Virus record (IMG/VR): IMGVR_UViG_3300032516_000013
Span: 26,333 to 90,332 of that record
Source: a virus
Length of the DNA: 64,000 nt
Reading direction: 5' to 3' (one strand)
Position numbers and translations under genes: made by a program. Below the pieces are notes generated by a model that was not told the DNA's origin, did not search any database, and worked only from the letters and a program-made list of their open reading frames with translations. Below are positions 898-27,530 of the stretch, one piece after another (positions within the stretch are counted from its first letter, which is position 1; every line of letters begins with the position of its first letter).

Positions 898-3636
898 CTA
901 ACCACCAAATCGTTTAAACATTCGACCCACAGCTTCATCGGCATCATTCTGCTCTGAGTCCACAGTTGCCTCCTGGATTTGTACTTTGGTTAGCGGCTTA
1001 GAATGAAGTGCACTCCTTCTCGCAATCCCTACAAGTCTTTCCATTAGGCTATCCACTTCTTGCAAATCTTGAATTTTCTCGAGAAGTGCCCGAGTGTTTT
1101 CATCTGTTTGCAATCTATGTTCATTAAGTTTAATTTCAAAATATTCTTTTACTAATTGTTTACGTCCTTCTTGAATAGCATCGTTTGCTATTTTTGTTAA
1201 CTCTTCTTGATGAGCAGCATGAAGAACGTCTAATTTCTTTTGGTTGGATAAAGATTCTTCCAACTTCTGATTTACATCATTTACTTCCTTTGCTTTCTTT
1301 TCTAACAAAGAACGGACTCCTTTTAGTTCGGCTTCCGCTTGGGTTAACTTTAGAAGTGCCTCAGTTAGCTTTGATTGTAAGATCTTAGAAACAATAGAAA
1401 CATCTCCCGCTTTATCCAAATGCTCCAGAGAGACTTCAAGTTCTGCTTTAGAAGTTGCTTCAGAAACTTTAAGATCAATTAACTCATCAGAAAGTTTTTT
1501 GACTGGATTTTTAGATTCCTTTTTAATAGGTTCAGGTTCTGTAGCTTTATCCCACAAATCATTTAATTGACGCAATTTTTCAATATCTGTTAAATCGCTA
1601 TCAATTATTCTTTTTCTTTCAGCATTAAGTTCAGTCACAGTCCATTGTTTTTGTTTTTCATTAACCTTAGTCTCTGTCAAATCCTTAAACTCAATATCCC
1701 AACTTCCTGCGTATTGCTTGCCTTGAGTAACAGCTGCTTCCTTTTCATCTAAACCATATTTAGTTAAAATACGTTCTGGACCTTTCCCTTTAAGAACAAC
1801 AACATAACCATCATCGTGTTCCTGAACTACAACAACTACTCCTTTTTGTTTGAGGAAGTTTCGTTCATTAGTTTTGGATTCGTTTGCTGGTCTTCCATAT
1901 CCACATACTGGACAGTATTGCTCCTTCTTGTCCTGATCCATTATTAATTCTTCACCACATTTTGGACAAACGTCCTCTGCTGGAACTAAATTCTCATTTA
2001 CTTTAGATTCCTTTTTAGCAGATCCTGAAGCAACTTTATCCAAAATAACATCTTCACCTGTCTTTTTATCAATATAACGCTCGCCATCTCTCTTTACTTC
2101 ATGCTCTGGAATTCCGGTACGGCTTCCAGAAACAATTTTGTAAACATTTATAGCTTCCGTTTCCTTCATTTGAGATTCTCCAACCATTGCCAACATAGCT
2201 TGCTTCGAAGCTTCCTCAAAGGAACCATATTTTCCTAAATGATCTCCTTTATGATAAAGATTAAAGGATTTACTTCCCTTTAAATTATCGTGAGAAACTA
2301 TAACCCAATCAAGATCAGTTGACAATTCCCAAAATGATTTTTCAGAATCACTTTTTCCTATAGATTTTTTCCAAGTTTCTTTTAATTCTGATTCAGAAAC
2401 CTTTTCCAAACCCAGCCCATCAACATTTCCCCAATCAACAGTTTTTACGTTTGCTTCTCCCACATCAGTTTGACCTTCTCCACTAATAGGTTCTAAATGA
2501 AGACTCAATGAATCAGAATCAGAAACCGTCCAAAGCTTTCCATCTTTATCTTTTAACAAATTTCCTTTTTGGAATCCATGATCTTCTGTAATTTTTGATT
2601 CTTTAACTTCAGCATATGCTTCTTTTGCTTGAGGAAGAAGAATATACTTCAAATAAACTGCTTCTATTTCCCCAAGATCTAAACCTTCAGGATCTTCGAC
2701 TCCCACATCTTCTAAGGATTCAAACTTACTAAGTTGATCAATCATATCTCCGTTTTCTGGGAATTCATTAGGAATAGTCTTATTTGTTATTGCCCAATTA
2801 AGGATCTTCTGATCTTCTGGATTTATGCCTGGAATTTCTCCTATTAATTCTTGAACAGATTCTTTTACATTTTTAGATTCTTCAAGTTTAGCAATTTTCC
2901 TTTGATGTTGTTCAGGAACACCTAATTCCATCTCACTCACTAAATTCCGAACTTTGCACTTCCCAGTACCACATCTACATTCTTTGCATTGAACAGATTC
3001 CAAAATCCTAGAAGCAAATTTCTTTTCAACAAGATTCATCTTGCCTTCTTTAACCAACGCAGAAACTGTTTCTACAACATTTCTTTCGATTTTTTGAGGC
3101 TCAACTCCGTCAGTAGAAGGATCTGCGGTAAAGTCGGTAGTCACAAAGTGATAAGTATCAGACACTACTTTTTGACATTTCTTCTTTTTACCATCAGCTT
3201 CATCTATTTCAAATTCCTCAAGATCTCCTTCAGCACGAGTTGAAACTCCCACTTTACAACCTGCCCGCAATAAAGTTTCCAAAATACGACCGGTAGGGGT
3301 ATCTAAAATCTCCATTTTCTGATAAACTTTGTTATCACTTTCATCAATCCACATCTTTGTTATAATATGTGAAGTTAGTTGAAGATCGCTTTGTGTTTCT
3401 GCTGGATGTTCCCCCTGTCCAAAAAGTGTCCTATCCGCTATTTTCTGCTGAATATTTTCGTCTGCTAAAACCTTCTCCCAAACATCAGATTCATAAATTC
3501 TGTTGTTTGCATTCACCTTTCCTATATTACAAATATTGTATGTTACGCAAGAAAGAACACCTTCAGGGAGTTTAACTTTTGTAACATCTTCAATTATAGG
3601 AGCAGAAGTAATAGTCTCATTGAGTTTCATTTCCAA
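898..3636 (-). CDS. Prohead protease (T4 gp21-like) fused to central modules and a C-terminal coiled-coil scaffold region
   Basis: N-terminal N-x-N-x-R-I-Y, G-x-x-x-H-P, SH, LDTPTG..L..L, GVSTR(A)EG and DFTADPS motifs of the gp21 family. The C-terminal ~200 aa is heptad-rich. Lies directly upstream of the capsid gene. Confidence 0.9.
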   Translation of the reverse strand: MEMKLNETITSAPIIEDVTKVKLPEGVLSCVTYNICNIGKVNANNRIYESDVWEKVLADENIQQKIADRTLFGQGEHPAETQSDLQLTSHIITKMWIDESDNKVYQKMEILDTPTGRILETLLRAGCKVGVSTRAEGDLEEFEIDEADGKKKKCQKVVSDTYHFVTTDFTADPSTDGVEPQKIERNVVETVSALVKEGKMNLVEKKFASRILESVQCKECRCGTGKCKVRNLVSEMELGVPEQHQRKIAKLEESKNVKESVQELIGEIPGINPEDQKILNWAITNKTIPNEFPENGDMIDQLSKFESLEDVGVEDPEGLDLGEIEAVYLKYILLPQAKEAYAEVKESKITEDHGFQKGNLLKDKDGKLWTVSDSDSLSLHLEPISGEGQTDVGEANVKTVDWGNVDGLGLEKVSESELKETWKKSIGKSDSEKSFWELSTDLDWVIVSHDNLKGSKSFNLYHKGDHLGKYGSFEEASKQAMLAMVGESQMKETEAINVYKIVSGSRTGIPEHEVKRDGERYIDKKTGEDVILDKVASGSAKKESKVNENLVPAEDVCPKCGEELIMDQDKKEQYCPVCGYGRPANESKTNERNFLKQKGVVVVVQEHDDGYVVVLKGKGPERILTKYGLDEKEAAVTQGKQYAGSWDIEFKDLTETKVNEKQKQWTVTELNAERKRIIDSDLTDIEKLRQLNDLWDKATEPEPIKKESKNPVKKLSDELIDLKVSEATSKAELEVSLEHLDKAGDVSIVSKILQSKLTEALLKLTQAEAELKGVRSLLEKKAKEVNDVNQKLEESLSNQKKLDVLHAAHQEELTKIANDAIQEGRKQLVKEYFEIKLNEHRLQTDENTRALLEKIQDLQEVDSLMERLVGIARRSALHSKPLTKVQIQEATVDSEQNDADEAVGRMFKRFGG

Positions 3637-3664: not shown

Positions 3665-6600
3665 TTAAAGTTTGTAAACTTGATACAAATCATCTCCATA
3701 CCAAGCTTGCTCTGCTTCAGAAGCCTTACCTGTTATCTCAACACCCTTCTCTTTGTTAATTGATCTTACAGTTGCTTCCTCAACAATAACCTTCAAATCT
3801 CTCTTTAGAACTATCTGAACTACGTCACCTTCCTTGATCTCTTCATCCTCTGTAACTTCACTAGATAAACCAAGAATTCTCTCTGCCATTGCAACCGCTT
3901 TTCTACCACCAAAAGCATCATCTTTTTTATCAGGCTTCACAAATTTACCTTCTAACAAACCATTATCCTTTGCATATTGATAAGCAGACTTATGCCAATC
4001 CTTTGCATCTAAGAAACCATCCTCCACTGCTTCCCAAACATCCTCATCATTCCATTCTTTAATAGTCTCGTTGGCTTTCTTATTGATAAGTTCAATATGA
4101 GCTCTATCTCGTTCAAACCAAGTATCAATCTCAGTGTCTTCAATAGTTATTTCTTCAAGAATTTTCTGAGATTCTTTTGCAGATTCCTTTTTTGCTTCTT
4201 GACATACTCCTCCAGACACTTTCTTAGCACTTAAAACTTTGACGCCCGGCTTTTTAGAAAGCATTCTCTTTGCTTCTTCTTCATCCAAAGCTTCTACTCT
4301 TGTATGTGTTTTCTTTCCATCCTTTTCGTATTCTACTTCATAGACTTCTTTAGTAAAGCCTACATCTTCACCACGAGCTTCGTTGGTTTTAGATTCAACA
4401 ATAAAAGTTTCCTCTCCCCTATCTTTTAATTTTTTATCATATTTTAACATCAAATTCTTTAACTCATTTTCCGGAACTTCATCTGCTGTTCGACAATGAT
4501 GTTTCTTCAACAAAGATTTCACTTCAGCATTCCATCCTTTGGAAAACTCTTCATCTTCAGAAAGAGTTTCATCCATATCTGGAAATATCTGATATATATT
4601 TTGTTCATGTTTCTCATTTGTTTTAGATTCAAATGGTAGTTTCTCCTCACCAGCAGCAACTTCTACTTCCTCTTCCTCCGGCTTCACTGCTTGTTCAGCA
4701 GCTTCCTCTTCTGGAGTTTCCATTTCCTCATGACCAAGTTCTCCTTCAGAAGGAACAGCTAATTCCTCTGGAGTAAGTGAAGCAGTTATAGGAGGTTCGG
4801 GTGGAGCAGGTATAACCGTTACAACACCATCATTACCAATATTAACTGCAGTATTACCATTTATGTTTACACTAACAGAAGCACCAGCTTCATCACCAAC
4901 TGTTAAAGAAATATTTGCTTCAGTAATCTTTGTAATTACAGCCGTCTTATCTTTATATTTAACTACTGTACCTTCTTGAAGCTTGCCTTCCTTTACAGCA
5001 TTCTTGATTATAAGTTTGGATTCCTTAGTAATGCATTCTGCATAATCTTTACCAGATTTCTTAAGAACACTCTTACAAATATTTGCAACATCTTCAAGTT
5101 CAACGCCTTCTTCTCCTGCCCAAACTTGAAGAACTAATCTACAAATATTTTCTAAAGTTGGTTCCTTACCACCTAAAAGATCCTCATTCATTTTAGATTC
5201 CTCAACTTTACCAGAACCAATTAGTTCAGCATATTCTCCATCATCCAAATGCTTAAGAGTTTCTAAAGCAAGTTCCTGCACACCTTCATTAGTCAATTTA
5301 CCAGAATCATCACTTCCAAACAACTTAGCAAAATCCGGTTGGAAATGAAAATCTCGCTTATTGATTTGGAGAGTTACTTCTTTATCGCTTCCCTCATCCA
5401 TAATCTGGACGCTAAAGGAATTACCTTTATCGTCCTTGACTTGAGTTGTTTCTGAAAGTGTATCTTCTTTTACTTCTTTTTCTTTCTTCATTTTCTTAGA
5501 TCCACATTTTTCAGATGTTTCTACGTCTTTTATATCTTCATCCTTTTCAACTCCACCACACTTCTCAAACGGCCAATGAGCCTTCTTACATTTAAAACAC
5601 GTAGGTGCTGTTTTTTCATCTACAGATTCCTTCTCTTCTGTATCCTTTTCATCTTTGGCTTTTGCATCACGATTCATTTTCTTGGACGCTTTAGCAGCGT
5701 CTGCGGCGTCATCTGCAACGTCTTCTAATGCTCTAGCAGCTTCTTCATAGTCCTTTACTTTCAATGCGTTAGAAGCGGCCCTAACTGCTGTTTTTAAGGA
5801 TCTCATATAATCAATACCCATTTTGGCTTCATTGGTTTGTATTTTTGATTCCCCAAAATATCCTTTAGCTTTTTCTCTGCTAGAAACATGGACAAGAACT
5901 CCTGCACCTTTATTTTCTGGATCTGGAATTGCTTCAATTCCTTCTTTTTTCAGATCAGCAAGAATTTCTTTTCTTCTATCTGGGTCCCAAACGGTATATG
6001 GAACCCATTCTCTGTCTTTATATATTACAGTATCTTTCTTCTCTTTCATTTTAGATTCCTCAACTTCTACATCCGCTTTTTCCAATTCAACTTTAAGAAT
6101 CTCTCCACTTCTCCACTTAGCCTGGAATCGACGTCTTGCTTCATTTTCATCTCTTCCATAATATCCAGCGACATGTTTTTGACCTTTGCCTTTGTTACTT
6201 TCTTCTCGTTTATTTCTCCAAGTAATGGTATACATATTGGTCTTATATTCTTGAACCTTCTTTGATTCTAAAGGTTTTTCTTTCTTAGATTTTTCTTCTC
6301 CAGGAACTTCTTCCTTAGAAACATCTTCTGGTTCTTCCAAACCCAATTCTTCTTCTGTATCTTCTTCCTCTTCAGCTTCTATTTCTTCTTTAGCCGGAGG
6401 CACAAGATATTGTAAAACCACGCTACGCTCAATCTGAGCAATATCAATTTCATCAATAGCTGCTAAAATAAACTGAGCAACATTTGTAGTATCTATTTCA
6501 TGCTCTTTAGCTGAATAAACTTTATTGCCTTCTTGATCATCTATTTTAAGATCTTCGATTTCACCTTGATCATTTTTGTCAACAACTACATAATAATGCA

Positions 6601-7186
6601 TATCGTCTTTACGACCTAAATAAAGCTTGTCGAAATCAGGTGTAGCTGCTTCTTCTGGTACTTCAGGAACATCTAAATCCTCTTCCTCTGGAGGAAGTTC
6701 ATCATCTCCTATAGGATTTTCAGGAGGAATATCATCACCAATCTCATTAATTTTATTCTCGTATTTCATAAGATTAGAATGTTTCTGAAGACAAGATTCA
6801 ACTTCTTTAAGACGGTTGGTTAATAATTCAAGAGCATCTGGTTCCCATTCTCTAGAAGAAATGCCCTTCTCTATACTAGATTTTAGATTTCTTAATCCTT
6901 CTACAAACATGTGTTCAGGATTTGCTGTACCAACCAAAAATTTGGCAGCTTCAATATCTCCGGCTCTCTCGATTAGTTTGGATTCTTTTGTTTCCTTCCC
7001 AGTGTCAACATCAATATCAACACCATTACATTTTGGGCATCTCATTTCAGTACTAGGATTCTTCCTATTAAATCTATAACCACATTCCTGACATTGCCAG
7101 TCTTTCATATCTTCCTGAAGTTTAGAATCTTCTTCCGACAGAAGCTGATCCTTATTCTCAATCATTTCCCGCATTATATCTTCCAT
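3665..7186 (-). CDS. Large acidic prohead core/internal head protein (putative polyprotein)
   Basis: 1173 aa, very E/K-rich, with two Cys/His Zn-ribbon-like modules and about 12 ESK-x-x-E-like motifs; next to the protease gene. Confidence 0.6.
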   Translation of the reverse strand: MEDIMREMIENKDQLLSEEDSKLQEDMKDWQCQECGYRFNRKNPSTEMRCPKCNGVDIDVDTGKETKESKLIERAGDIEAAKFLVGTANPEHMFVEGLRNLKSSIEKGISSREWEPDALELLTNRLKEVESCLQKHSNLMKYENKINEIGDDIPPENPIGDDELPPEEEDLDVPEVPEEAATPDFDKLYLGRKDDMHYYVVVDKNDQGEIEDLKIDDQEGNKVYSAKEHEIDTTNVAQFILAAIDEIDIAQIERSVVLQYLVPPAKEEIEAEEEEDTEEELGLEEPEDVSKEEVPGEEKSKKEKPLESKKVQEYKTNMYTITWRNKREESNKGKGQKHVAGYYGRDENEARRRFQAKWRSGEILKVELEKADVEVEESKMKEKKDTVIYKDREWVPYTVWDPDRRKEILADLKKEGIEAIPDPENKGAGVLVHVSSREKAKGYFGESKIQTNEAKMGIDYMRSLKTAVRAASNALKVKDYEEAARALEDVADDAADAAKASKKMNRDAKAKDEKDTEEKESVDEKTAPTCFKCKKAHWPFEKCGGVEKDEDIKDVETSEKCGSKKMKKEKEVKEDTLSETTQVKDDKGNSFSVQIMDEGSDKEVTLQINKRDFHFQPDFAKLFGSDDSGKLTNEGVQELALETLKHLDDGEYAELIGSGKVEESKMNEDLLGGKEPTLENICRLVLQVWAGEEGVELEDVANICKSVLKKSGKDYAECITKESKLIIKNAVKEGKLQEGTVVKYKDKTAVITKITEANISLTVGDEAGASVSVNINGNTAVNIGNDGVVTVIPAPPEPPITASLTPEELAVPSEGELGHEEMETPEEEAAEQAVKPEEEEVEVAAGEEKLPFESKTNEKHEQNIYQIFPDMDETLSEDEEFSKGWNAEVKSLLKKHHCRTADEVPENELKNLMLKYDKKLKDRGEETFIVESKTNEARGEDVGFTKEVYEVEYEKDGKKTHTRVEALDEEEAKRMLSKKPGVKVLSAKKVSGGVCQEAKKESAKESQKILEEITIEDTEIDTWFERDRAHIELINKKANETIKEWNDEDVWEAVEDGFLDAKDWHKSAYQYAKDNGLLEGKFVKPDKKDDAFGGRKAVAMAERILGLSSEVTEDEEIKEGDVVQIVLKRDLKVIVEEATVRSINKEKGVEITGKASEAEQAWYGDDLYQVYKL

Positions 7187-10266: not shown

Positions 10267-10653
10267 TTAAACTTCGTCTTCCCCAGGTTCACCTATTGGA
10301 AGTTCTTCCTCATCAGCAGCTACTTCTTCTGTTTCCTCTTCAGCAGATTCACCTGAAATAAATATAGTATACATGTCCTCGATTCTATCGTCTTCACAAC
10401 CACGAACAAAATCCAATAATGCTTTCTTCATTTCTTCAATAGATAAAATTCCGCCTTCTTCACCTAGCTCTTCTGCTTTTCTTTCCTCGGCCTCTTCATT
10501 CACATTATCCAACTGAGGATCTTTGCCTTTCATCTCAGGACCTTTATCTGGACCCTTACCAGGCTGTTGGGCTTCTTTAATCTCCTCAGGAAAATCCTTC
10601 TCTGCATTTTGAGTTTCATTCAATAACTGCCGGAAACTTTGATCCATGTTCAT
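10267..10653 (-). CDS. Acidic putative prohead core/internal protein
   Basis: Highly acidic; N-terminal leader ends LLNE. Confidence 0.45.
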   Translation of the reverse strand: MNMDQSFRQLLNETQNAEKDFPEEIKEAQQPGKGPDKGPEMKGKDPQLDNVNEEAEERKAEELGEEGGILSIEEMKKALLDFVRGCEDDRIEDMYTIFISGESAEEETEEVAADEEELPIGEPGEDEV

Positions 10654-10654
10654 T

Positions 10655-11047
10655 TTATTCTCCCTTAAATAGTTCGAAACTTGTTTTGTTTAATCGATTC
10701 AATAACACAGGAATCAATTTTCTATATTCTAAATTACCTTTTTCACATTCAATAATCGTATGTGTGAGAATACTGGAAATACTCTTGATATAAGTAAGAT
10801 TCGATTCCCCTATTTTCTTAATTCTCTCCAATGTCTTATGAACGCTCTTACCTTTTAATTTCTCTACCAATTGACTCAGCAACTGCCCCTCAGAAGGAAG
10901 TTGCTTTAATGTTTTTCGAACAGCTGCAATATTACCTTGATCCCATTGAGCTTGAGCAGAATCCAATATCTTCTGGTACTTAGTTCCAGAGAAATATTTG
11001 CTTGCTTCATTTAAATCAATTAATATTTGTACAGAAAGAGGATTCAT
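10655..11047 (-). CDS. Hypothetical protein (possible head protein)
   Basis: ORF with GGAGA RBS; leader ends DLNE. Confidence 0.55.
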   Translation of the reverse strand: MNPLSVQILIDLNEASKYFSGTKYQKILDSAQAQWDQGNIAAVRKTLKQLPSEGQLLSQLVEKLKGKSVHKTLERIKKIGESNLTYIKSISSILTHTIIECEKGNLEYRKLIPVLLNRLNKTSFELFKGE

Positions 11048-11089
11048 ATTAAATAGAGTCTCCTACTAACAAATAAATAAATGAGAATA

Positions 11090-11986
11090 CTATTGTTTCG
11101 CTGCTAATTGCTCTAATAATTTTGGGATATTTTCCAAAATATCAGAAGATGAGACACAAAAACCTAATGTCCCATTGGGGTAAATAAGTGAAACTAATCC
11201 ATAACATTTTCCATTTAAACCAAAAATAGGACCACCAGAATTTCCCAGATTAACAGAAGTATCAACCTGTATAAAAATCTGACTCCCTCCTAAAAACTTT
11301 CCTATTCTGCTAACTACTCCAGTTGAAATACTATTTGTTAATCCTCCTGGATTCCCAATCATTAATAAACTTCGTCCGATTCTTAAATCTCTTATATCTC
11401 CGAACTGAACAGGAGTTAACTCTAAACAATCAGGAATATCAATCTTTAAAATTCCTAAATCGATTGAAGAAACAAGTGATTCTGGATTAGAAATATCAAA
11501 AGGAATATTAATAAAATTCCGTATTTCAAAAATTTCTCCAGAATATATCTGAACAGTTGCCTTAACATCCCAATATGTGTTAGGGTCAGATAAAAAACCT
11601 TTCAAAGAATCAACAACATGAGAAGCTGTTAAAATATTTCCTTCCTTATCTAAAACCATTCCAGAAGCATTAACATACGTTAGAACTTCTTTTCCTGTCA
11701 TTGGATGACGGGTTTTTGCTATTACATTCACACAAACAACTGTTGGATTAAGTCTTTCTACTAAATTCGGAATTTGTTCTTCACAAATATTATCTTGAAT
11801 ATTTCCCAACAATTTCTTATACAGCATGCAATCTCTCTCAACTAATTGTTCTACTAGCTGAGTAGTTCGACCTTGGGTGTATAAAATATCTAACTTCCTT
11901 GTTCGCATTTGATAGTTCAAAAAGCTTATATTAACAACAGCAACCAACAAAATCGAAACAATTGATATTTGAATCCATCTCTTCAT
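11090..11986 (-). CDS. Trypsin-like (HtrA/DegP-type, no PDZ) serine protease with N-terminal membrane anchor
   Basis: ILTASHV, DLGIL and VNLGNSGGP catalytic triad motifs; hydrophobic N-terminus. Confidence 0.9.
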   Translation of the reverse strand: MKRWIQISIVSILLVAVVNISFLNYQMRTRKLDILYTQGRTTQLVEQLVERDCMLYKKLLGNIQDNICEEQIPNLVERLNPTVVCVNVIAKTRHPMTGKEVLTYVNASGMVLDKEGNILTASHVVDSLKGFLSDPNTYWDVKATVQIYSGEIFEIRNFINIPFDISNPESLVSSIDLGILKIDIPDCLELTPVQFGDIRDLRIGRSLLMIGNPGGLTNSISTGVVSRIGKFLGGSQIFIQVDTSVNLGNSGGPIFGLNGKCYGLVSLIYPNGTLGFCVSSSDILENIPKLLEQLAAKQ

Positions 11987-12377: not shown

Positions 12378-12599
12378 TTATGTTTTTAATTGATTTATTT
12401 CCGATTCATACGCATCAATCTTTGCATATATATTTGATTTAGATTGTCCTTTAGGCATTGTTTTTGCCAAGTTTTCCAAATCCTTTATTCTCTTCTGCAA
12501 ATCTTCTATTTTGTCCATAGTGAACATTTTCTTAAGTTTGGGATCCGATATGGTTGAGACATCTTCTTTAATTATGTGCTCAAATAGTTCTTCAAACAT
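12378..12599 (-). CDS. Small putative internal head protein
   Basis: Leader MFEELFEHIIKE also occurs inside the upstream 789-aa protein. Confidence 0.5.
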   Translation of the reverse strand: MFEELFEHIIKEDVSTISDPKLKKMFTMDKIEDLQKRIKDLENLAKTMPKGQSKSNIYAKIDAYESEINQLKT

Positions 12600-12600
12600 A

Positions 12601-14970
12601 TCATCTCCCTAAAGACTTCTCCCAGTAAGCACCATCTTTAGTTTCTTCTGCTCTTTTGAAACCCATTTTCTCTAACATAGATTGGGATGCTATATTAAAA
12701 GATTCTACATATCCTCTTGCCTTAGTGACCCCATATTTTTCAATAGCATATTTTATTCCAAACTCCAATAATTCTGGACCATACCCGCTACCTTTTATCC
12801 GAGCATCTAATCTAGTCAAATATACTAATTTATCTTTACTATTTATGTCGAGGGTGGCTTCTACTACTAAATCATCACTTATATCAAGCCAAGTTTTGGT
12901 TTCTTTATTTAGCCGTCCATCAAAAAAAATTCTGACCTTCTTATCCGTAATTGTGATATCTAATCGTCTGGTTTTATATTCTCTCTTGTCTTCCTGAGTC
13001 TCTTCTCCAATTATATATTCAAATAGTTCTTCTTTAACTTTCTTGGTCTCTTTTGATTCTCTGATTTCTAATTTGGAACCACACTTTGGACAAGTCATAG
13101 TTTTAAGAACTTCTGGCTTTGTTTCCTTTACAGTTTTTCTATAACTACGCCAAGGACATTCCTTGCTCGTACAAACTAACTCAGTCCAATCTCTCCAATA
13201 TCCTCTAGCTTCTACAGCTTTTGTAATTTTGGATTTATGCATTACTCTTTTATCAAAACCAGCATTACCAAGTTCATCCAAATCATAATATGTCTTACCT
13301 TCATCAGTTGAGAAGCAAGTAGGACATCTCTTAGATTGCCAATCAGGTTTATGATCCGGAGATCTCGCATCATTAACATCCATCCACTCTTCTGGATTAT
13401 CTGTAAGTTCTGTTAAAGGTTTATACTCTGCCAATTTGTTAAATATGGAAGTTGTTAATCCCGCGGAGAATCCGGAATGTCCTTGATCAGCAAACTTCTG
13501 GATAAGATCCATTACTGCTTCACCAATCATTCCATCGTAGTCAGAATCTTTATCAAATAGTCCTGCTAATTGAAGTTCCTTCTTTGCAAAGTCAGTTAGA
13601 GATTCATTTATTGATTCCCAAGCTTCTGCTTCTTTTTTACCATAACCATAAGTAAGAATATATTCTAATTGATCTATATTTTTTATACTTATTGGAGAAC
13701 TACTATCAAAGTCTTCTCTATCTAGATCTAGAAACATCTTTTCAATTCCTGAACCATATTCTTTATACAGACGAAGAAAAGATTCTATTTGTTTCTGTGT
13801 AGGTTTGTTATTTCCTCCAGTTATCCCTATTTCTTTTGCATGCGGGGAAAAGTAACCAGCTATTGCTCCAGCAAAGTACATATCACTTGGAGCAATATCA
13901 ATTTTGTTAATAGTAACCAAATAAGCATAGAAAACTGGAATAACTGTTCCATCAGTAAGTAACCAAAACTTTAGTTCTCCTCTTTCTTTACCTGAGTAAG
14001 TACATGGAACTAACTTTTGACTTTTTCCTTTATAATAGTTCTTTAGCTTTGTTTGAACTTTACCAAGTGGTAAGAATGCTTCTTGAATGGATTCCCCCAT
14101 CTTCTTATATTTAGCAATATAGCTCTTTGTCTCTTCAGGAAGTTTAGATCCACCAACACCATTATTCCCCTTTAGATTACCAACACCCCAATTATAGGCA
14201 GCTAATCGATTCTCAAGATTATCCTCAAGATTATAATGCTTTAATAATCGAGGGATTTCTATGTTTAAATAATAAGAACCAACCTTCCTATTCTTGTTGG
14301 AATCGAATGCTTCTTCCCAAGACCATTGGACATTCATCTTGCGAGTCATCTCTTCCCAAGTAGGTTTTGTTATCTGAAGAAGACCTCTTGCTCCAGATCT
14401 TTTGTTCTCGGCCTTTGGATTATTTGAAGATTCGATTGATGCTATTTTAGATATGTTGATTTGAGGAGAAGCTTTTGGAGATACAATAGTAAACTTAGGA
14501 GTTACTTCTTGTCGAGAAGGGGCAGAGATAGTAGGTGGTTCGCTTTTGTCTTTAGGAACGCTTGTCTGCATACCTCCTAGGCCTATCAAACTGGCTGCTG
14601 CAGTTGTAACTAATGTTTTGCCTAGACCTTCCTCTAATTTGTTTACTCTATCTCTAAATTCTTCCCAATGACCAGTAGAACTATAAGATTCAAAATATTC
14701 TATATCCCCATCAGGATGAATCCAACCACCTTTATAAGATAATTGTTCATTCAATAATTCATTCTTCTTCGCCTGGATCTTCATTACAACATTACGAAAT
14801 GCTTCTGAACTTTCCTTGCACATATCATCAGAAGTGTCAATATTATCTAAGATTTGATAGAGAGCCTTAGCAACTTGCTCCCAGGTCATATCCTTGCTCT
14901 CTTTAAGAGAAATGAGTTTACCTAGAATCATTTGATCTGTGAAAAAAGAATTGGCTTCGATAAAATCCAT
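12601..14970 (-). CDS. Multidomain protein with an SLT lytic transglycosylase, a Zn ribbon and a C-terminal GNAT (putative internal virion polyprotein)
   Basis: IASIESS...SGARGLLQI...AAYNWG (SLT); IKGSGYG...N.AS..MLEKMGF (GNAT); ES-x-x-E linkers between modules. Confidence 0.8.
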   Translation of the reverse strand: MDFIEANSFFTDQMILGKLISLKESKDMTWEQVAKALYQILDNIDTSDDMCKESSEAFRNVVMKIQAKKNELLNEQLSYKGGWIHPDGDIEYFESYSSTGHWEEFRDRVNKLEEGLGKTLVTTAAASLIGLGGMQTSVPKDKSEPPTISAPSRQEVTPKFTIVSPKASPQINISKIASIESSNNPKAENKRSGARGLLQITKPTWEEMTRKMNVQWSWEEAFDSNKNRKVGSYYLNIEIPRLLKHYNLEDNLENRLAAYNWGVGNLKGNNGVGGSKLPEETKSYIAKYKKMGESIQEAFLPLGKVQTKLKNYYKGKSQKLVPCTYSGKERGELKFWLLTDGTVIPVFYAYLVTINKIDIAPSDMYFAGAIAGYFSPHAKEIGITGGNNKPTQKQIESFLRLYKEYGSGIEKMFLDLDREDFDSSSPISIKNIDQLEYILTYGYGKKEAEAWESINESLTDFAKKELQLAGLFDKDSDYDGMIGEAVMDLIQKFADQGHSGFSAGLTTSIFNKLAEYKPLTELTDNPEEWMDVNDARSPDHKPDWQSKRCPTCFSTDEGKTYYDLDELGNAGFDKRVMHKSKITKAVEARGYWRDWTELVCTSKECPWRSYRKTVKETKPEVLKTMTCPKCGSKLEIRESKETKKVKEELFEYIIGEETQEDKREYKTRRLDITITDKKVRIFFDGRLNKETKTWLDISDDLVVEATLDINSKDKLVYLTRLDARIKGSGYGPELLEFGIKYAIEKYGVTKARGYVESFNIASQSMLEKMGFKRAEETKDGAYWEKSLGR

Positions 14971-16867: not shown

Positions 16868-16882
16868 TATTTATTCTCCTAA

Positions 16883-16956
16883 TCTGGGCAGCAGGATTCG
16901 AACCTGCGACTACCTGGTCCCAGGCCAGGTGGCATACCAGACTTGCCCATACCCAG
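16883..16956 (-). tRNA. tRNA-Pro(UGG), no encoded CCA
   Basis: Acceptor stem CTGGGTA/TGCCCAG plus A73, D-loop GG, anticodon arm CCTGG-CCTGGGA-CCAGG, T arm GCAGG-TTCGAAT-CCTGC. Confidence 0.88.
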
Positions 16957-17304
16957 AACTACTTACCATTCCCCAATCTCCAAATTAAATAAACCACACC
17001 TACTGTATCTACAACTAACTTTAAAATCAACCAAATCAATAAATAGAAATCACATCCTCTTAACATCCCTGCATCTCCCCCCCTTAATTCTCCGAAGACT
17101 TCGTAAGACGAGCAATCAAATTCTTAATTGCAGGCCCAAACAAAACACCAAGGGCAAACACCAATGCATGAGTTACTAGTACCATAATGATTCTCCTAAA
17201 AAATGTTAATACTGTTGTTTAGAACTCAAAACCTAGATTTTTTGCTGCCACAATTTCTATCTCTGTAAGATATCTTTGTATTTATTTTCCAAACTTCTTC
17301 ATAA

Positions 17305-19312: not shown

Positions 19313-21793
19313 TCACACTTCTTCAGGTTCATCCTTTATAAGATCTAACTCCTCTTCAACAACTTCCATTTCTGATTCTGGTTTGAACTCGACTATTGTC
19401 TTTGAAAACTTTAATTTCCAAGATCGAGCGTCTCTTTCTATTAACCAACCCGAACTAATGTCTTTGTCTCCTTTTCTCTTAGCTTCTAAAAGAGACTTAT
19501 CTCCAATCTTAATAGCTTCCTCATCATCTTGAACAGAAACTAAAGCTGGCAAATATGATCGAACATCCATGCTCTCAGTAGGACGCCTTCTTGTAAACAA
19601 TTTATCTCTTCGTTTTATTGCCTCATTTATTGCAACATCTGTTATGAGTTCATAATTAATATTTCCTGAACCCAATGTGTTATCCTCTGGTATAAGATTG
19701 CTATAAATGCTTTCAAATCCTGGCTTAGGAGGCTTCTTTTCTCCAGGTTGCTCTCCGGGTAATGCTGTAGGCTTTGCCGTTTCTTCTTTAGCCGCTTTAG
19801 CCGCAATCATTTGTTTTCTTAATTCATCTTCCTTTTGCATAACTTCAGGAGATTTAAAGAAATCTGTAATCTGGAAATCTTCCATCTTTAGAATCTTCTC
19901 ATTAAAATACTCCCAGATCTTCAGCATATCAATTCGATTACCAGCTACCTTTTTCAAAGTCTCAATAAATTTCCTAAATGAATCTATCCCAGAATTCAAA
20001 GACTTCATCATTTGAGCTTCTTCAGTTGAGGAAGTTTCAGACATATGAACTTCAAACAAAGCAGGATCCGGATCCATTCCCATATAAGCAAGATGTATCT
20101 GACATAGGCGAACAATGCCTGAAACTAGCGATCTCTGTAATCTTCTAGCAGATCTGGCGAATCGTATACCTAATTCTGATATAGCCTCAGAACCTAATGC
20201 TCCGGATGATTCCTTAGTAAATGCACCACCTAATGATGGAGAACATGCCATAGCAAATGCTAATTGATTCCTTAAGTTATCAACATCAACAATCCATCGA
20301 ATATCAGCCTCTCCTCCAACCTTCTCATACTTAAGATCATCAATGCTTCCCCACACAGGAACAAAAATATCTTCAATTGCAGTCAATGAATTTTGCTTGT
20401 TATCAAAACCAGGACTGCCATCTCTTGTATCAATAGCTCGAGCCTGAGTAATCAAAGTAGCATATTGATCCATCAAGCTACTAACAGCCTCAGCATTATT
20501 CATATCTACTTTCATCTTCCAAATATAACGAATAATGCCTCTTGTTACACGAGCTAACAGTAAACTATCCTCTGCTAATCGAAGTCTCTTATAAGCAGGT
20601 AATGCATTAAGAGCTATAGATGCTCCATATCTTGTATTTATCTGTTTAGTGTCTCCCCCTGTTACAAGATGGATTTGTCTCATCTCCGCATAACCAGGAT
20701 CGCCTCCAAATTTAGGTCTCTTCCTTTTAGTTCCAAGAAGTCTAAAATGCACATAATCCCATGGAGGAATCAATGCTTGAGATCTATCATCATATCCTGT
20801 CTGAGCAATACCCTGAGGTGTCCTATAGAATCCAACAAGCATTCCTTCCACTTCTACTCGACTTATATGCATTGGATAAACACCATCATCCAAAGAGATA
20901 ACTCCAATACCTGGAACTCCATTTGCTTTTATAAAGAGATCACCAAATGTAGCAACAGAAACAGCCCAGTCAAATATCTTCTCTTCTACTCCTACTTGAT
21001 CTAGAAAACTAGTAAGCTCCTTAGCATATGTATCGTTTTGAGAAGTCACCCAAACTGTTGCATTGTGGATGGGATTGAATGTCGTCGCAACATTCCCATA
21101 AAGATCAAGAGCAGGACCAACAAACCAATGCTCGCAATTACTTACAAAAACGCCAGCTTTCAATGGAAAGTTATGATTCTTCTCAGTTCTTAAACAGTAA
21201 ACATCCTCAAGATGAGGTAATTCCTGAACAATAACAACTTTATGATTCAAAAGACATTCCATTAATTTAGACATTAGGGAATCACCGGATTGAAGATACT
21301 GGGCTTCTTTATATGTTCCATCTCTCAGAAGAAATTTATGATCTAAGGTACAATCTATTTCTTCTCCATTATCCAAAGTAACTCTCACCAATTTAGAAGA
21401 TCTTCTAGTAAGACCAACAGCCATTATTTTATCTGGTTCTAATCCTAAAGTTTCTGGGTTAATACTCAAAGTGTATTTTCCAACAAAGTTCTCAGGATGT
21501 TCTGACATTTCTTTCAATGTTGGAGTTGTGTTGTTTAATAGATACACTTGGGTAGATCCTACAAAACAGGCTCTTTCCAGTTCCTGATACATTCCAAATC
21601 TATCAGCTGAAACTCTAACATCCTCCTCTATCGAACGCTGTAACATCTTAGCAGTCAACCCAGCTTTTTGTAACAGAAGAATTGCATCCTTATCTAACTT
21701 TTGTCCTACTCCACGAAAAGTATCAGCAGGAATCATCGGAGGTTTATCTGTTATACCTGGCAATAATTGAGTAAATGGATTTGTTGAAGGCAT
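19313..21793 (-). CDS. Portal protein (T4 gp20-like) containing an intein
   Basis: VHFRL, YGASI, LRLAEDSLLLARVTR...K.D, EDIFVP and DVDNLRNQL motifs of gp20-type portals. Confidence 0.88.
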   Translation of the reverse strand: MPSTNPFTQLLPGITDKPPMIPADTFRGVGQKLDKDAILLLQKAGLTAKMLQRSIEEDVRVSADRFGMYQELERACFVGSTQVYLLNNTTPTLKEMSEHPENFVGKYTLSINPETLGLEPDKIMAVGLTRRSSKLVRVTLDNGEEIDCTLDHKFLLRDGTYKEAQYLQSGDSLMSKLMECLLNHKVVIVQELPHLEDVYCLRTEKNHNFPLKAGVFVSNCEHWFVGPALDLYGNVATTFNPIHNATVWVTSQNDTYAKELTSFLDQVGVEEKIFDWAVSVATFGDLFIKANGVPGIGVISLDDGVYPMHISRVEVEGMLVGFYRTPQGIAQTGYDDRSQALIPPWDYVHFRLLGTKRKRPKFGGDPGYAEMRQIHLVTGGDTKQINTRYGASIALNALPAYKRLRLAEDSLLLARVTRGIIRYIWKMKVDMNNAEAVSSLMDQYATLITQARAIDTRDGSPGFDNKQNSLTAIEDIFVPVWGSIDDLKYEKVGGEADIRWIVDVDNLRNQLAFAMACSPSLGGAFTKESSGALGSEAISELGIRFARSARRLQRSLVSGIVRLCQIHLAYMGMDPDPALFEVHMSETSSTEEAQMMKSLNSGIDSFRKFIETLKKVAGNRIDMLKIWEYFNEKILKMEDFQITDFFKSPEVMQKEDELRKQMIAAKAAKEETAKPTALPGEQPGEKKPPKPGFESIYSNLIPEDNTLGSGNINYELITDVAINEAIKRRDKLFTRRRPTESMDVRSYLPALVSVQDDEEAIKIGDKSLLEAKRKGDKDISSGWLIERDARSWKLKFSKTIVEFKPESEMEVVEEELDLIKDEPEEV
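21137..21568 (-). mobile_element. Mini-intein (144 aa) in the portal
   Basis: Starts CFVGSTQVYL; block B CTLDHKF; block F DVYCL...HNF; ends VFVSN followed by Cys+1; no LAGLIDADG domain. Confidence 0.9.
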
Positions 21794-22038
21794 AGTTTCT
21801 ATCCCAAAAAGTTTGATGGTTAGTTATAAGAACAACTTGCTAATTAATAAATAAATGGAAATAAAGAGATAAAGGTGGAAAATAGAAATTTAATTAAGAA
21901 ACTTTTAATTCAAGTTCACTCATAAGCACATACCGCTCTACTTCCTGTTTAATTTTCTTAAACATTTCAAAAGCAACAATTTGAGCCGAAGTTGGATGAC
22001 TGCTACAGTCAAAAACTGATTGTGACTCAACATTTTCA

Positions 22039-22362
22039 TTACTTTCTTTTCTTAGATAATCGTTTCTTGTTTAGTCGAACTAACAGTTTATAAAACTCTA
22101 TTGGGTTATCCTCATAATCTATATCCCCTATACAATTAAAATTCTTATTTACTAAAATACCTGGGCACACAGTACATTCACCATTACTATAATCACAAAA
22201 ATAACAATCATTTTCTAAAGTATGCGGACTATATCCATTAGCAGTTAAATATAGATGTTTTAATTCTTCTATATCTTCTTCTGTAAGTCGTAGTCCTACT
22301 TGTGTAATCCACTTCCACATTCTAAGACACTCTGACCATGTTTTATTTAATGACATCTTCAT
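22039..22362 (-). CDS. Hypothetical Cys-rich phage protein
   Basis: CYFC...CTVCP. Confidence 0.55.
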   Translation of the reverse strand: MKMSLNKTWSECLRMWKWITQVGLRLTEEDIEELKHLYLTANGYSPHTLENDCYFCDYSNGECTVCPGILVNKNFNCIGDIDYEDNPIEFYKLLVRLNKKRLSKKRK

Positions 22363-22771
22363 AATCTTTCTCCTAAGTTAGTTCAAACAATAATAGTTGT
22401 TCATTAGGTTGTCTTAACATTTCTATATATCTTGTGGACAATTCCCAATACTACCCCAATGGTGCTTTAGGATTTTTAGTTGTTATACGAAATATATCAG
22501 AACTTATAACTGCTATTATTATACAGGGGTTCAAAGCATCTTCTTTCGCCTCTTTACACCAATCACTCTCAGGAAACAGTTTTACTCTATCACCAACTTT
22601 AAATTTAGTCCGGCCAATCATAGTCATTCCTTATTGCTAAAGTAAGATACTTTACTAATCCTTCAGCACGTTTCTTATTGTATGATTCTCTATACTTGGT
22701 ATATAAACATCTGTTTCAATACAAACTTACTTGTCTCCTTATCTTGTAATATCCAACCAAACTTTTTCATA

Positions 22772-22957
22772 TTATGTTATCTCCGGTGCTCTCTCTTTTC
22801 TTAATTCTTCACTTAACTCATTATTTGCAGTTTCTAAAGTTTGTAGTGCTTCCGCAGCCATTATGCATAAAACTAAATAAAATCCTTGAGATACTGGCTT
22901 ATCTGTATTTCCATATATCTTCAACACATTGATTAATGCTTGCGTAGATTCATCCAT
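22772..22957 (-). CDS. Hypothetical protein
   Basis: 61-aa ORF with GGAGG RBS. Confidence 0.5.
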   Translation of the reverse strand: MDESTQALINVLKIYGNTDKPVSQGFYLVLCIMAAEALQTLETANNELSEELRKERAPEIT

Positions 22958-23079
22958 TTTTAAACCCCCTCCAAAGTTACTTTAATCTTCACAACTATTT
23001 CTTGAGAATTTCTGTGTATACTTGCTACCGCAATTTTGTTCCTGCACGCACGCTCGTCAATAAATTGCCACATATCCAT

Positions 23080-23157
23080 TAAATCATAGCAAGGAGGGCT
23101 GATGTTAATAAGTCATCGAGCTTTTAAGGACTGTGCCACCTCCACGCTAATGATTTA
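23080..23157. ncRNA. Candidate structured RNA / long intergenic hairpin
   Basis: Nested complementarity TAAATCAT-AGC/GCTAATGATTTA, GGAGG-GC/GCC-A-CCTCC and GATG/CATC in a GC-richer intergenic gap. Confidence 0.35.
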
Positions 23158-23158
23158 T

Positions 23159-23446
23159 TCAATCTTCAATTGCCAAAACATCTTGCATGTCTATTATCCG
23201 GAGATTTTCATCCTTACTATCAAGTTCTTGTCCAGAAAAAGAAATTAAAACTCTATCCCCAACCTTTATAGACATAATATTCCTTTTTCCATTACCAAGA
23301 ATCCTACCAGGCCCAACTGCTCTCACCACACCAGTAGTTGGACTCTTCTTAGCAACTCCGGGAATAAGAATTCCTTTGTCTGTTCTATCTTTTGGAACAA
23401 TGTATTCCACCAATAATTTATCACCTAATAAAAGCTGAATGTTCAT
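23159..23446 (-). CDS. groES: Co-chaperonin GroES
   Basis: LGDKLLV...T.KGILIP....K.PTTG.V.AVGPG......IKVGDRVL...D.LAI. Confidence 0.9.
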   Translation of the reverse strand: MNIQLLLGDKLLVEYIVPKDRTDKGILIPGVAKKSPTTGVVRAVGPGRILGNGKRNIMSIKVGDRVLISFSGQELDSKDENLRIIDMQDVLAIED

Positions 23447-23772
23447 GATTTCTTTGTCCTAAAAATAAAATGATGAATTTTCCCCAAAAATGTAACAACA
23501 CTTACCTGCATATACGGCTCTTCTGCGGACATTGTCTGTGCTATATTTTCCCAATAAACCGCCTTAATAAAAGATTTCGGACCACCAACACAATTGAGTG
23601 ACATAAAAGTTGAGACCATCTCTCCCATTTTCAAAAAATTTCCGCTTCTTAATCCTGATTCAAACAAACCACTTAATCCATTATGAATATTATGAACTAT
23701 TGTATTCTCCACTATATAACCAGTTACTTCTGGAGAAGGAAGAGGAACAATTTTTGGACCTTCATCTCTCAT
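23443..23772 (-). CDS. Hypothetical protein
   Basis: Coupled to flanking ORFs. Confidence 0.55.
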   Translation of the reverse strand: MRDEGPKIVPLPSPEVTGYIVENTIVHNIHNGLSGLFESGLRSGNFLKMGEMVSTFMSLNCVGGPKSFIKAVYWENIAQTMSAEEPYMQVSVVTFLGKIHHFIFRTKKS

Positions 23773-24082
23773 CTGTTTTCTCAGGCTTTTTTACTTTCTT
23801 ATCCTCACTCTTTATCTTATACTCTGCTTCTTCCTTGGTGCAAGTAACTAAAACAGTTTTTCCAGGAAGAAATATTCGACATGCTACTTTTGTTTGAGAT
23901 TGTCCATCCGGACCCATCACTTCTAAAGGAATGATATCGGGAGCTAAATAGCAAACATGCTCAGCTACAATTGTAACTGACATATGACTTACTCGAATTT
24001 GCTTCTCACTAACTGGCTGAATAACTACTTCTGTAAACTCGACGAATCTCATGTTAGTTCTCCTTCTTAATGTCATCCACAT
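23762..24082 (-). CDS. Hypothetical protein
   Basis: ORF in the operon; start probably at MRFVE. Confidence 0.55.
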   Translation of the reverse strand: MWMTLRRRTNMRFVEFTEVVIQPVSEKQIRVSHMSVTIVAEHVCYLAPDIIPLEVMGPDGQSQTKVACRIFLPGKTVLVTCTKEEAEYKIKSEDKKVKKPEKTDER

Positions 24083-24253
24083 TAAACAAAAACTTTGCTT
24101 TCATCATATACACTTTCAATTGCTTCTTGTTATGTCCACAACAAATTCCTAAACAAAATACCTTTGGCTTTCGTTAGTGACCAAATAAATCATTTTCACG
24201 TTAACACTCATAAAAACATCACCATGTTTCCATTTTCTATTCATGTTTTTCTC

Positions 24254-26939: not shown

Positions 26940-27530
26940 CTAAGAGATCCGGTAAATATGCCGCAGGTCTGCTCCACGCAGGTCTGCTCCACTCAGGTTT
27001 GCTTCATTCATGTCTGCTCCATACAGGTTGGCTTCACACAGGTTTGCTCCACGCAGGTTTGCTCCATTCATGTCTGCTCCACTCAGGTTTGCTCCATACA
27101 GGTCTGCTCCATACAGGTCTGCTCCAATCAGGTTTGCTCCACTCAGGTTTGCTCCATACAGGTTTGCTCCACTCAGGTTTGCTCCATTCATGTCTGCTCC
27201 ACTCAGGTTTGCTCCATACAGGTCTGCTCCATACAGGTTTGCTCCACACAGGTTTGCTCCACTCAGGTTTGCTCCACTCAGGTTTGCTCCATACAGGTTT
27301 GCTCCACTCAGGTTGGCTTCACGCAGGTCTGCTCCATACATGTCTGCTCCACTCAGGTTTGCTCCACTCAGGTTTGCTCCATACAGGTCTGCTTCACGCA
27401 GGTTGGCTTCACGCAGGTCTGCTCCATACAGGTCTGCTCTACTCAGGTTTGCTCCATACAAGTTAGCTTTAGCTTTTATTTCATAACCATTTACATTCAC
27501 ATTCACTTCTGTTTTCTTTTTATTTTTCAT
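26940..27530 (-). CDS. Pentapeptide-repeat protein, copy A (3' end appears frameshifted)
   Basis: A(N/D)LxG repeats encoded by 15-bp units. Confidence 0.85.
   Translation of the reverse strand: MKNKKKTEVNVNVNGYEIKAKANLYGANLSRADLYGADLREANLREADLYGANLSGANLSGADMYGADLREANLSGANLYGANLSGANLSGANLCGANLYGADLYGANLSGADMNGANLSGANLYGANLSGANLIGADLYGADLYGANLSGADMNGANLRGANLCEANLYGADMNEANLSGADLRGADLRHIYRIS

Follow-up and report, generated by a model that had tools for sequence, protein, structure and literature searches.

What is a single viral gene that strings together a lytic transglycosylase domain, a Tad3-family domain and a predicted acetyltransferase doing among the genes for a phage head? The question is raised by protein P0001, which is encoded in a 64,000-nucleotide stretch of DNA (hereafter the window) that forms the 3′ 64 kb, positions 26,333 to 90,332, of the 90,332-base IMG/VR virus record IMGVR_UViG_3300032516_000013, estimated to be 58% complete. 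The source phage is an uncultured myovirus with T4-type head genes. A first-pass annotation, made from the letters of the sequence, had read the gene as a polyprotein that delivers a peptidoglycan hydrolase and an acetyltransferase after maturation cleavage in the virion. Our answer, to which we give a probability of about 0.5, is that P0001 may be an accessory cargo polyprotein of the prohead core, whose modules would be separated by cleavage inside the capsid and enter the host along with the DNA. The open reading frame (ORF) is present, and the gene and its modules, in the order of the protein in amino acids (aa), are as follows.

12601–14970, minus strand: gene of P0001, 789 aa, ATG start
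14746–14970, minus strand: conserved N-terminal domain, residues 1–75, defined by alignments and module BLAST
14629–14745, minus strand: 'GWIHPDG' segment, residues 76–114, between L-N-E75 and L-E-E114
14080–14628, minus strand: SLT module, residues 115–297, a helix and an SLT lytic transglycosylase domain, ending in ESIQE297
13603–14079, minus strand: module X ('KFWLLTDGT...'), residues 298–456, 159 aa, bracketed by ESIQE297 and ESINE456
13216–13602, minus strand: Tad3-family domain, residues 457–585, starting directly after I-N-E456
13030–13215, minus strand: linker and putative zinc ribbon, residues 586–647, with four Cys (CX4C...CX2C) and then a helix
12604–13029, minus strand: predicted GNAT-fold acetyltransferase module, residues 648–789, the last module, placed by Foldseek and a structural model

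Which domains are these? Their identities are directly established by comparison with profile and structure collections. Residues 457–563 (13282–13602) match Pfam profile PF25185 (Tad3) with an E-value of 2.8e-34 and 117.9 bits against a family cut-off of 27, the alignment covering profile positions 2–102 of 119. In the PDB, P0001 has a single significant sequence match, the solved Tad3 (9b7d_B, 194 aa), at 3.3e-05 with its sequence alone and, again as the sole match, at 6.1e-12 with a 23-sequence profile; the domain is modelled with a predicted local distance difference test score (pLDDT) of about 80–92 over residues 457–569. The first-pass annotation had picked out this self-contained 'GHSGFSA...WQ.KR' domain at ~13240–13600 and left it unnamed. 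Tad3, which came to light when phage proteins were co-folded with ThsB, is described as a direct inhibitor of this sensor of type I Thoeris systems and as a free homodimeric protein that binds two ThsB monomers (PMC13728456, PMC13402655). It co-purifies with ThsB and restores the growth of Thoeris-sensitive phage (PMC13728456, PMC13402655, PMC13712596), and its discovery is credited by two of these sources to Yirmiya et al., Cell 2025, 188:1681 (PMC13728456, PMC13402655). On the profile matches, membership of the P0001 domain in the Tad3 family is firm, and we set the odds that the ThsB-binding function carries over from Tad3 at about even.

The SLT domain, which had been recognized at ~14110–14460, is matched by Pfam PF01464 inside that range (residues 173–269, ~14164–14454) with an E-value of 4.2e-13 and 49.3 bits against a cut-off of 21.3. 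The strings 'IESS', 'GLLQI' and 'AYNWG' are visible in the protein, and we take them to be the hallmark motifs of SLT domains, with the catalytic Glu-Ser. PHROG matches of the region comprise a lytic tail protein, an endolysin and an internal virion protein with an endolysin domain (PHROG 342, 1e-05). The helix that precedes the domain (~117–135) is rich in Gly and Ala and weakly hydrophobic, with a hydropathy peak of 1.22 at residue 120.

At the other end of the protein, the AlphaFold2 model of residues 457–789 has a mean pLDDT of 78, and its GNAT part (661–786) lies mostly at 77–93 with one 10-residue block at 63. With this model, Foldseek returned 339 PDB matches at E ≤ 0.001, and the top matches listed are all GNAT proteins (best 3owc_B, 9.6e-07) with target-normalised TM-scores of 0.5–0.63. 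Pfam scores fall below the curated cut-offs (Acetyltransf_3, 23.7 against 25.4 bits; Acetyltransf_1, 18.4 against 20.7). The stretch RIKGSG in P0001 is an R-x-x-G-x-G stretch and presumably the acetyl-CoA motif. In the model, residues 661–786 adopt a GNAT fold, as the first-pass annotation had proposed, and the module is a predicted acetyltransferase. The zinc ribbon proposed in that annotation is plausible on sequence and model: four Cys are present at about residues 598–629, the Pfam Zn-ribbon matches are weak (E 0.04–0.9), and the model has pLDDT below 50 at 571–595 and strands at ~597–638 of moderate confidence. The helix that follows ends in a cluster of [ILVM]xE sites at residues 638, 647, 651 and 656.

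The large module of residues 298–456 and the N-terminal domain of ~75 aa had been left without description. Module X is modelled well (AlphaFold2 pLDDT 88.7, predicted template modelling score 0.84). Its model has no Foldseek match at E ≤ 0.001 in the PDB or BFVD, and its sequence has none in Pfam, PHROGs or NCBIfam and no usable ESM Atlas match for residues 298–456. The best BFVD matches (E 0.008–0.04) are all uncharacterised phage proteins, and a gelsolin-like identity, suggested by the best PDB match (E 0.26, probability 0.44), was rejected as noise. A second copy of module X ends a 1010-aa head ORF outside the window (39% identity, 3e-19).

The N-terminal domain was compared across relatives. 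An exhaustive search of 1.84 billion representatives gave 3,912 proteins at E ≤ 0.001, and the best 150 of these plus earlier matches formed an analysed set of 153 sequences including P0001. The domain is common to 42 of the 152 other proteins, 39 of which carry a Tad3 domain too. It contains an [LI]-x-E site at residues 22–24; E24, W30 and E31 are invariant in all six aligned relatives, and a second alignment finds the same site in loci L006 and L010. No Pfam family matches the domain at E ≤ 1, and the ESM Atlas gave no usable match for residues 1–116. We propose that residues 1–75 may form a prohead-targeting or propeptide region. Pieces of ~35 aa similar to the adjoining 'GWIHPDG' segment were found by module BLAST in P0019, P0043, P0044 and P0046.

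Where does the gene sit? Its head context is observed directly. The long ORFs of the window lie nearly all on the minus strand, and the block that contains P0001 begins, in the direction of transcription, with a T4-type portal gene with an intein, followed by small ORFs with an HNH endonuclease gene and by P0001 itself. After P0001 come two ORFs (73 and 119 aa), a protease of the HtrA/trypsin type, small acidic ORFs and Ig-like ORFs, a GIY-YIG endonuclease and a 1173-aa protein without an assigned family. A 912-aa S77 protease fusion and a gp23-type major capsid protein that straddles the start of the window come next, followed by an M42 aminopeptidase and a 1010-aa protein that contains an intein; the tail sheath lies farther along. 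The neighbours that matter most to the argument are the following.

19313–21793, minus strand: T4-type portal protein at the upstream end of the head block (Pfam Portal_T4 1.7e-19, Intein_splicing 2.9e-14)
12378–12599, minus strand: 73-aa ORF directly downstream of the P0001 gene, compared by eye with relatives
11090–11986, minus strand: HtrA/trypsin-like serine protease, 298 aa, with an N-terminal hydrophobic anchor (Pfam Trypsin_2 8.4e-18)
898–3636, minus strand: prohead protease fusion, 912 aa, with an N-terminal T4 gp21-type (S77) domain and a long modular extension

The 912-aa protease matches Pfam Peptidase_S77 (2.4e-10) and the head maturation proteases of PHROG 207 (3e-33), the 298-aa protease matches the NCBIfam Do/HtrA family at 9e-23, under its cut-off, and the major capsid protein shares at most 29% identity with that of any cultured phage. 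In T4, the genes of the prohead core lie between those of the portal and the protease. P0001, placed between the portal and the S77 protease, thus sits where T4 has its prohead-core genes. A stretch closely similar (by eye) to the 73-aa ORF is fused at the C-terminus of the relative P0002, past its Tad3 domain. Directly past the capsid gene and outside the window lies the M42 glutamyl-aminopeptidase gene (Pfam 4.9e-53; G000 23043–24134), which is unusual for a head block; its product could trim Glu-ended or Glu-started peptides left after maturation cleavage.

As to the origin of the DNA, the sole sequencing run in which it was found comes from a sediment metagenome, possibly the source sample itself, and no RNA run is listed among the sequencing runs searched. 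On a 5-kb stretch one 56-base Logan record was placed, which is uninformative about the assembly either way.

Are the modules joined at sites that a head protease could use? According to PMC9026906, T4 gp21 cleaves after L/I-x-E. The motif ES(K)[ILVM]xE was tested in the minus-strand ORFs of 50 aa or more, 29,832 aa in total, and occurs 15 times, 13 of them in five head-region ORFs that total 4,170 aa. In the four large head ORFs, the observed counts were reached by 0, 2, 1 and 6 of 2000 shuffles. The last figure is that of P0001, which has two sites against 0.11 expected. The placement of these two sites is directly observed, as ESIQE (293–297) and ESINE (452–456) exactly bracket module X, and the module X copy in the 1010-aa ORF is also preceded by ESIQE. 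The 912-aa S77 protease has three sites, and its 1173-aa neighbour also carries the motif repeatedly. Among relatives, the motif is enriched in P0002–P0005 (counts reached in 0, 0, 1 and 7 of 1000 shuffles) and not in P0006 (99 of 1000). The 13 copies in the head ORFs differ at synonymous codon positions; the motif as a DNA recombination scar was rejected for this reason, and the differences argue for selection on the peptide and not on a DNA repeat. Variants of the form 'ESK...E' with T at P3 or longer spacing, such as ESKTNE and ESKKVQE, are missed by the strict pattern in the 1173-aa protein (3665–7186, minus strand) and in the extension of the protease (898–3636); because many variants escape in this way, the motif family is broader than counted.

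The junction before the Tad3 domain offers a larger sample. Of 114 Tad3-bearing representatives among the 150 best matches, 11 start no more than five residues from the domain and 103 have it embedded. In 50 of the 103, [ILVM]xE stands exactly at P3–P1 (16 with the ES(K) prefix) against a background of 2.9%, and in 10 more it lies one residue off. Homologues that consist of one module also begin near the junctions. In the 138-aa homologue of Rhizobium phage RHph_I1_23, encoded near a cro-like repressor gene, and in the stand-alone Tad3 protein of a Xanthomonas jumbo phage, the initiator Met aligns with E456. The stand-alone GNAT P0009 (140 aa, 67% identical) begins at about residue 649, two past V-K-E647. 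Stand-alone SLT relatives of 190–300 aa begin at about residues 108–119, where E114 falls, and have short acidic leaders, mostly ending in [ILVM]xE, followed by the same helix. A short N-terminal leader as a general rule was dropped when its pattern matched only two of 144 minus-strand ORFs. The separators named in the first-pass annotation thus divide into two kinds: GESIQE and WESINE belong to the enriched motif, whereas KESK (L-K-E24), LLNE (E75), KLEE (E114) and VKEE (V-K-E647) are plain [ILVM]xE, which position supports through the invariance of E24 in 6 of 6 relatives, the starts of stand-alone SLT proteins around E114 and the start of P0009 two residues after E647.

These observations bear on the quite unlikely alternative that P0001 does not enter the virion at all and is a late cytoplasmic or membrane protein, for example a lysis or wall-remodelling factor, or a tail-associated lysin. 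The best PHROG matches of the SLT region, 'lytic tail protein' and 'endolysin', point that way, as do the weakly hydrophobic helix of the SLT module, which resembles those of membrane-tethered lysins, and the membrane anchor of the HtrA-like neighbour, which suggests envelope-directed functions in the block. Against it speak the position of the gene between portal and prohead protease, where T4 has the genes of its core proteins (core composition in PMC9026906), and the sharing of a module X copy and the linker motif with other head-block ORFs, the protease included; an inhibitor of an infection sensor would also be of little use if made only late.

Is this architecture fixed? Module sets vary across relatives, which supports a chain of exchangeable modules. 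A word-indexed search found seven relatives, all with the Tad3 domain and five also with the N-terminal domain. In the 153-sequence set, module BLAST assigned Tad3 only to 73 proteins, the N-terminal domain plus Tad3 to 35 and SLT only to 28. Four combine the N-terminal domain, one or two copies of module X and Tad3, and others have module X repeated up to six times, or the GNAT with other pieces. The full module order of P0001 is repeated in none of the others. The motif ES(K)[ILVM]xE flanks an HNH_3-like module on both sides in P0002 and again in P0004. Among GenBank phages, tblastn gave 51 records, none of which covers at least 80% of P0001, and the 30 matches listed all fall within residues 452–578. 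A search of IMG/VR with the single protein P0001 gave eight pattern matches, none of which was confirmed.

We also compared loci. A Tad3 relative is present in 37 IMG/VR loci, four of which (L006, L007, L010 and L012) have related head genes too, and all four carry an embedded Tad3 after [ILV]xE. In the other 33 such an arrangement is seen only in L035 and L042, the latter with a 9-residue leader; the remaining loci have short ORFs, most of which begin at the domain or slightly ahead of it. Stand-alone members of the family lie in early or accessory regions of unrelated phages. In L007 (9614–10453) and L012 (9605–10393), Tad3 follows a ~140-aa domain with a DxDG motif, which looks like a HAD-type phosphatase, joined by I-S-E or I-N-E, and here the gene is located after the capsid gene and not after the portal. 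In L010, whose portal is 55% identical, the syntenic gene encodes only the N-terminal domain and Tad3 (220 aa), and it runs into the beginning of the HtrA-like gene (10639–11559). Among ten portal relatives, L058 (portal 54% identical) retains the HtrA-like gene and a homologue of the 88-aa ORF that lies upstream of P0001, and no match to the N-terminal, Tad3, SLT, X or GNAT module lies between the two; in L056 and L064, the same modules gave no match within 10 kb downstream of the portal. The shortening in L010 and the absence in L058 indicate an accessory slot with variable content. The dispensability of the slot and the shuffling of modules are thus directly established, and the fixed module architecture that would have refuted the first-pass reading is not found among relatives.

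The same loci inform a further alternative, a tangible possibility that we place clearly below even: the Tad3-like domain may not be a Thoeris inhibitor but may act as an enzyme or ligand-binding domain through the His-Ser of 'GHSG', or as a morphogenetic partner or regulator of the HtrA-like protease. Such a role could be compatible with a modular polyprotein. The HtrA-like gene directly follows the gene of the N-terminal and Tad3 domains in L010 and in the metagenome loci L045, L050 and L052, which makes four of the seven additional loci where the gene is complete and enough sequence lies downstream. The HtrA-like protein may itself be a processing enzyme, a partner or cargo, or may have an envelope function. 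In addition, the solved Tad3 is distant, only about 80 residues being alignable (its residues 33–117, ~85 positions, with the N-terminal 32 unaligned), and the 'GHSG' His, nearly invariant in the family alignment, is a Gln in it; for both reasons, ThsB binding may be confined to part of the family. The Pfam score, far over its cut-off, argues against this alternative, as does the location of stand-alone members in early or accessory regions, as for anti-defence genes, Tad3 genes being reported in anti-signalling hotspots of N4-like phages (bioRxiv 10.64898/2026.06.04.730250). The gene missing from its slot in L058 argues against an essential morphogenetic role. On balance, we rate the chance that the Tad3-like piece blocks Thoeris just short of even.

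Several features stand beside these comparisons. A second Tad3-bearing group (P0007, P0008 and L042) has a nucleotidyltransferase-like N-terminus, DUF5661 and weak similarity to crAss cargo protein 2 (E 0.0046); its junction is [LI]-N-E without the ES prefix, and the 9-residue leader of L042 ends in I-L-K-E. Intein-splicing domains occur in the portal (19313–21793) and in the 1010-aa head ORF (G000 20009–23041, outside the window), with 37% identity over 109 aa and an HNH_3-like insert inside the intein of the latter, and the portal relatives L057 and L059–L062 have intein-like insertions at other positions. A single tRNA-Pro (anticodon TGG; 16882–16957, minus strand) lies between the HNH endonuclease gene and a metallophosphatase-like ORF. 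Three paralogous multicopy ORFs (26940–27530, 27693–28166 and 54186–54935, minus strand) are 60–71% identical and contain internal repeats, as found by self-BLAST.

How might such a protein work? In T4, internal proteins are described as being targeted to the core by short N-terminal propeptides and ejected as mature proteins (PMC9026906). In an analogous scheme, the N-terminal ~75 residues of P0001 would bring the chain into the assembling prohead, like the capsid-targeting propeptides of T4. The gp21-type S77 protease, or less likely the HtrA-like neighbour, would then cut after Glu at exposed junctions; the S77 enzyme fits by family specificity and the HtrA-like enzyme by conserved adjacency. 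Candidate cut sites are the ES(K)[ILV]xE motifs that end in E297 and E456 and, probably, the plain [LIV]xE sites that end in E24, E75, E114 and E647. The products would be a helix-anchored SLT domain, domain X, the Tad3-like domain, perhaps with the zinc ribbon, and a minimal GNAT, which would exit the capsid together with the DNA. The SLT domain could then help to breach the peptidoglycan, the Tad3-like piece, present from the first moment of infection, would bind the TIR sensor ThsB before the signal is made, and the GNAT might acetylate a host target. P0001 is probably virion-associated, and cleavage at the motif sites seems slightly likelier than an even chance.

The cargo-polyprotein reading in the first-pass annotation is partly supported: comparison shows a modular build, a place in the head block of a phage with a gp21-type protease, and Glu-ending junctions of a type cut by that protease family. 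The annotation had overlooked the Tad3 module, the identity of which makes this domain a candidate anti-defence cargo at least as much as the GNAT that had been proposed for that part.

A number of points weigh against a cleaved and injected cargo, in addition to the distance of the solved Tad3 given above. With 19 sites, or 2.4% of positions against 2.9% in 103 relatives, plain [ILVM]xE shows no enrichment in P0001, and only the position and the 'ES' prefix of the junction sites stand out. The motif was defined after these proteins had been viewed, and the related sequences are not independent, which makes a binomial figure computed on them descriptive only. The 'ES(K)' prefix lies outside the published specificity of T4, the likely propeptide site of the capsid protein (I-L-E64) has no such prefix, and P3 is T, A or K in several of the new loci. 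No [ILVM]xE is present, even at a one-residue offset, in 43 of the 103 embedded junctions, and neither of the two models shows clear disorder at the junctions, which are modelled as helix ends. We infer the packaging, cutting and ejection of P0001 alike. No Thoeris system can be linked to a host of this phage.

Some of these points would suit a P0001 that is packaged or virion-associated yet remains one uncleaved chain, in which each ES(K)[ILV]xE stretch would be just a hydrophilic linker that caps a helix and was passed on with its module. Uncleaved multidomain chains of this type include the N4 virion RNA polymerase and certain polyvalent proteins. Some polyvalent proteins are described as packaged or transferred unprocessed (PMC5512222), and the helix ends without long disordered linkers, as well as the 43 junctions without the site, agree with such a chain. 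We nevertheless consider it unlikely, since the genome has a gp21-type protease of a family that cuts exactly such sites, the motif is repeated in the 912-aa protease itself and in the 1173-aa neighbour, and the first residue of stand-alone homologues falls on a junction glutamate or no more than two residues from it.

What would follow if the capsid did deliver a Tad3-family domain? Anti-signalling defence would start ahead of any phage gene expression, and the timing of sensing and inhibition would have to be rethought. To our knowledge, the Thoeris and CBASS inhibitors known so far are described as free proteins with early expression. Restriction enzymes are the targets of the injected inhibitors that have been studied well: T4 IPI is described as an injected inhibitor of a type IV restriction enzyme (PMC9026906), and Ip2 and Ip3 likewise inhibit restriction enzymes (PMC12373910). 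We found no packaged or fused Tad3 or anti-Thoeris protein in the literature searched, supplements excluded, and the primary Tad3 paper may report homologue architectures. The embedded state of Tad3 in 103 of 114 proteins, with 39 proteins having the same head-associated N-terminal domain, suggests that P0001 is not a one-off. If the linker motif is a protease site, it would provide a simple rule for spotting capsid cargo in metagenomic phages and a ready-made design by which a phage head could be loaded with several proteins. A wider and rather improbable extension is that a clade of uncultured phages with T4-type heads strings swappable cargo together by an ES(K)[ILV]xE code that the capsid protease would cut, with a Tad3-family ThsB inhibitor as one recurrent cassette; such a phage would bring its blocker of a TIR signalling defence with it on arrival. 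Module X and the N-terminal domain are, in any case, abundant domains without a match to a named fold or family.

How does P0001 compare with known systems? Like the phage of the T4 internal proteins and Alt, the P0001 phage has a gp20-type portal, a gp21-type S77 protease and a gp23-type capsid protein, and in the junctions of P0001 P1 is Glu and P3 is hydrophobic, comparable with L/I-x-E (PMC9026906). The putative cargo also holds a member of a known anti-defence family, and the gene is accessory and variable. In contrast, the cargo of T4 is described as single small proteins with propeptides of 10–19 residues (PMC9026906), whereas P0001 has up to six modules in 789 aa behind a conserved domain of ~75 aa. 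Its junction has the extra 'ES(K)', its presumed target is a TIR signalling defence and not a restriction enzyme, and it is known from sequence.

Proteins with an SLT domain in the capsid interior are represented by the internal virion proteins of the T7 gp16 type, to which the PHROG 342 match of P0001 (1e-05) points. In the giant phages phiKZ and SPN3US, numerous head proteins and ejection proteins are reported to be cut after Glu by a gp21-related prohead protease, which uses more than one site in some of them (PMC10052503). Those reported cuts mostly remove N-terminal propeptides, whereas P0001 looks like a string of separate cargo domains, and no similarity of P0001 to the T7 gp16-type or giant-phage ejection proteins extends past the SLT domain. 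Tad3 itself is a free homodimeric protein (PMC13728456, PMC13402655), whereas the P0001 domain is embedded in a head-block protein.

The polyvalent proteins surveyed by Iyer et al. (2017; PMC5512222) are described as having 2–15 conflict-related domains, occurring in portal-terminase phages and predicted to be packaged and delivered with the DNA; they are sometimes processed by peptidases, GNATs are among their modules, and a lytic transglycosylase is mentioned once. P0001 similarly combines several unrelated conflict-type domains (SLT, Tad3-like, GNAT, a putative Zn ribbon and two unassigned domains) in a portal context. Unlike them, it lacks the signature domains of that survey (Pfam, E ≤ 1), would be processed by a capsid protease at a repeated linker and not by an in-chain metallopeptidase, and holds a Tad3-family module, a family described years after the survey. 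In function, P0001 would appear closest to the T4 internal proteins and the polyvalent proteins.

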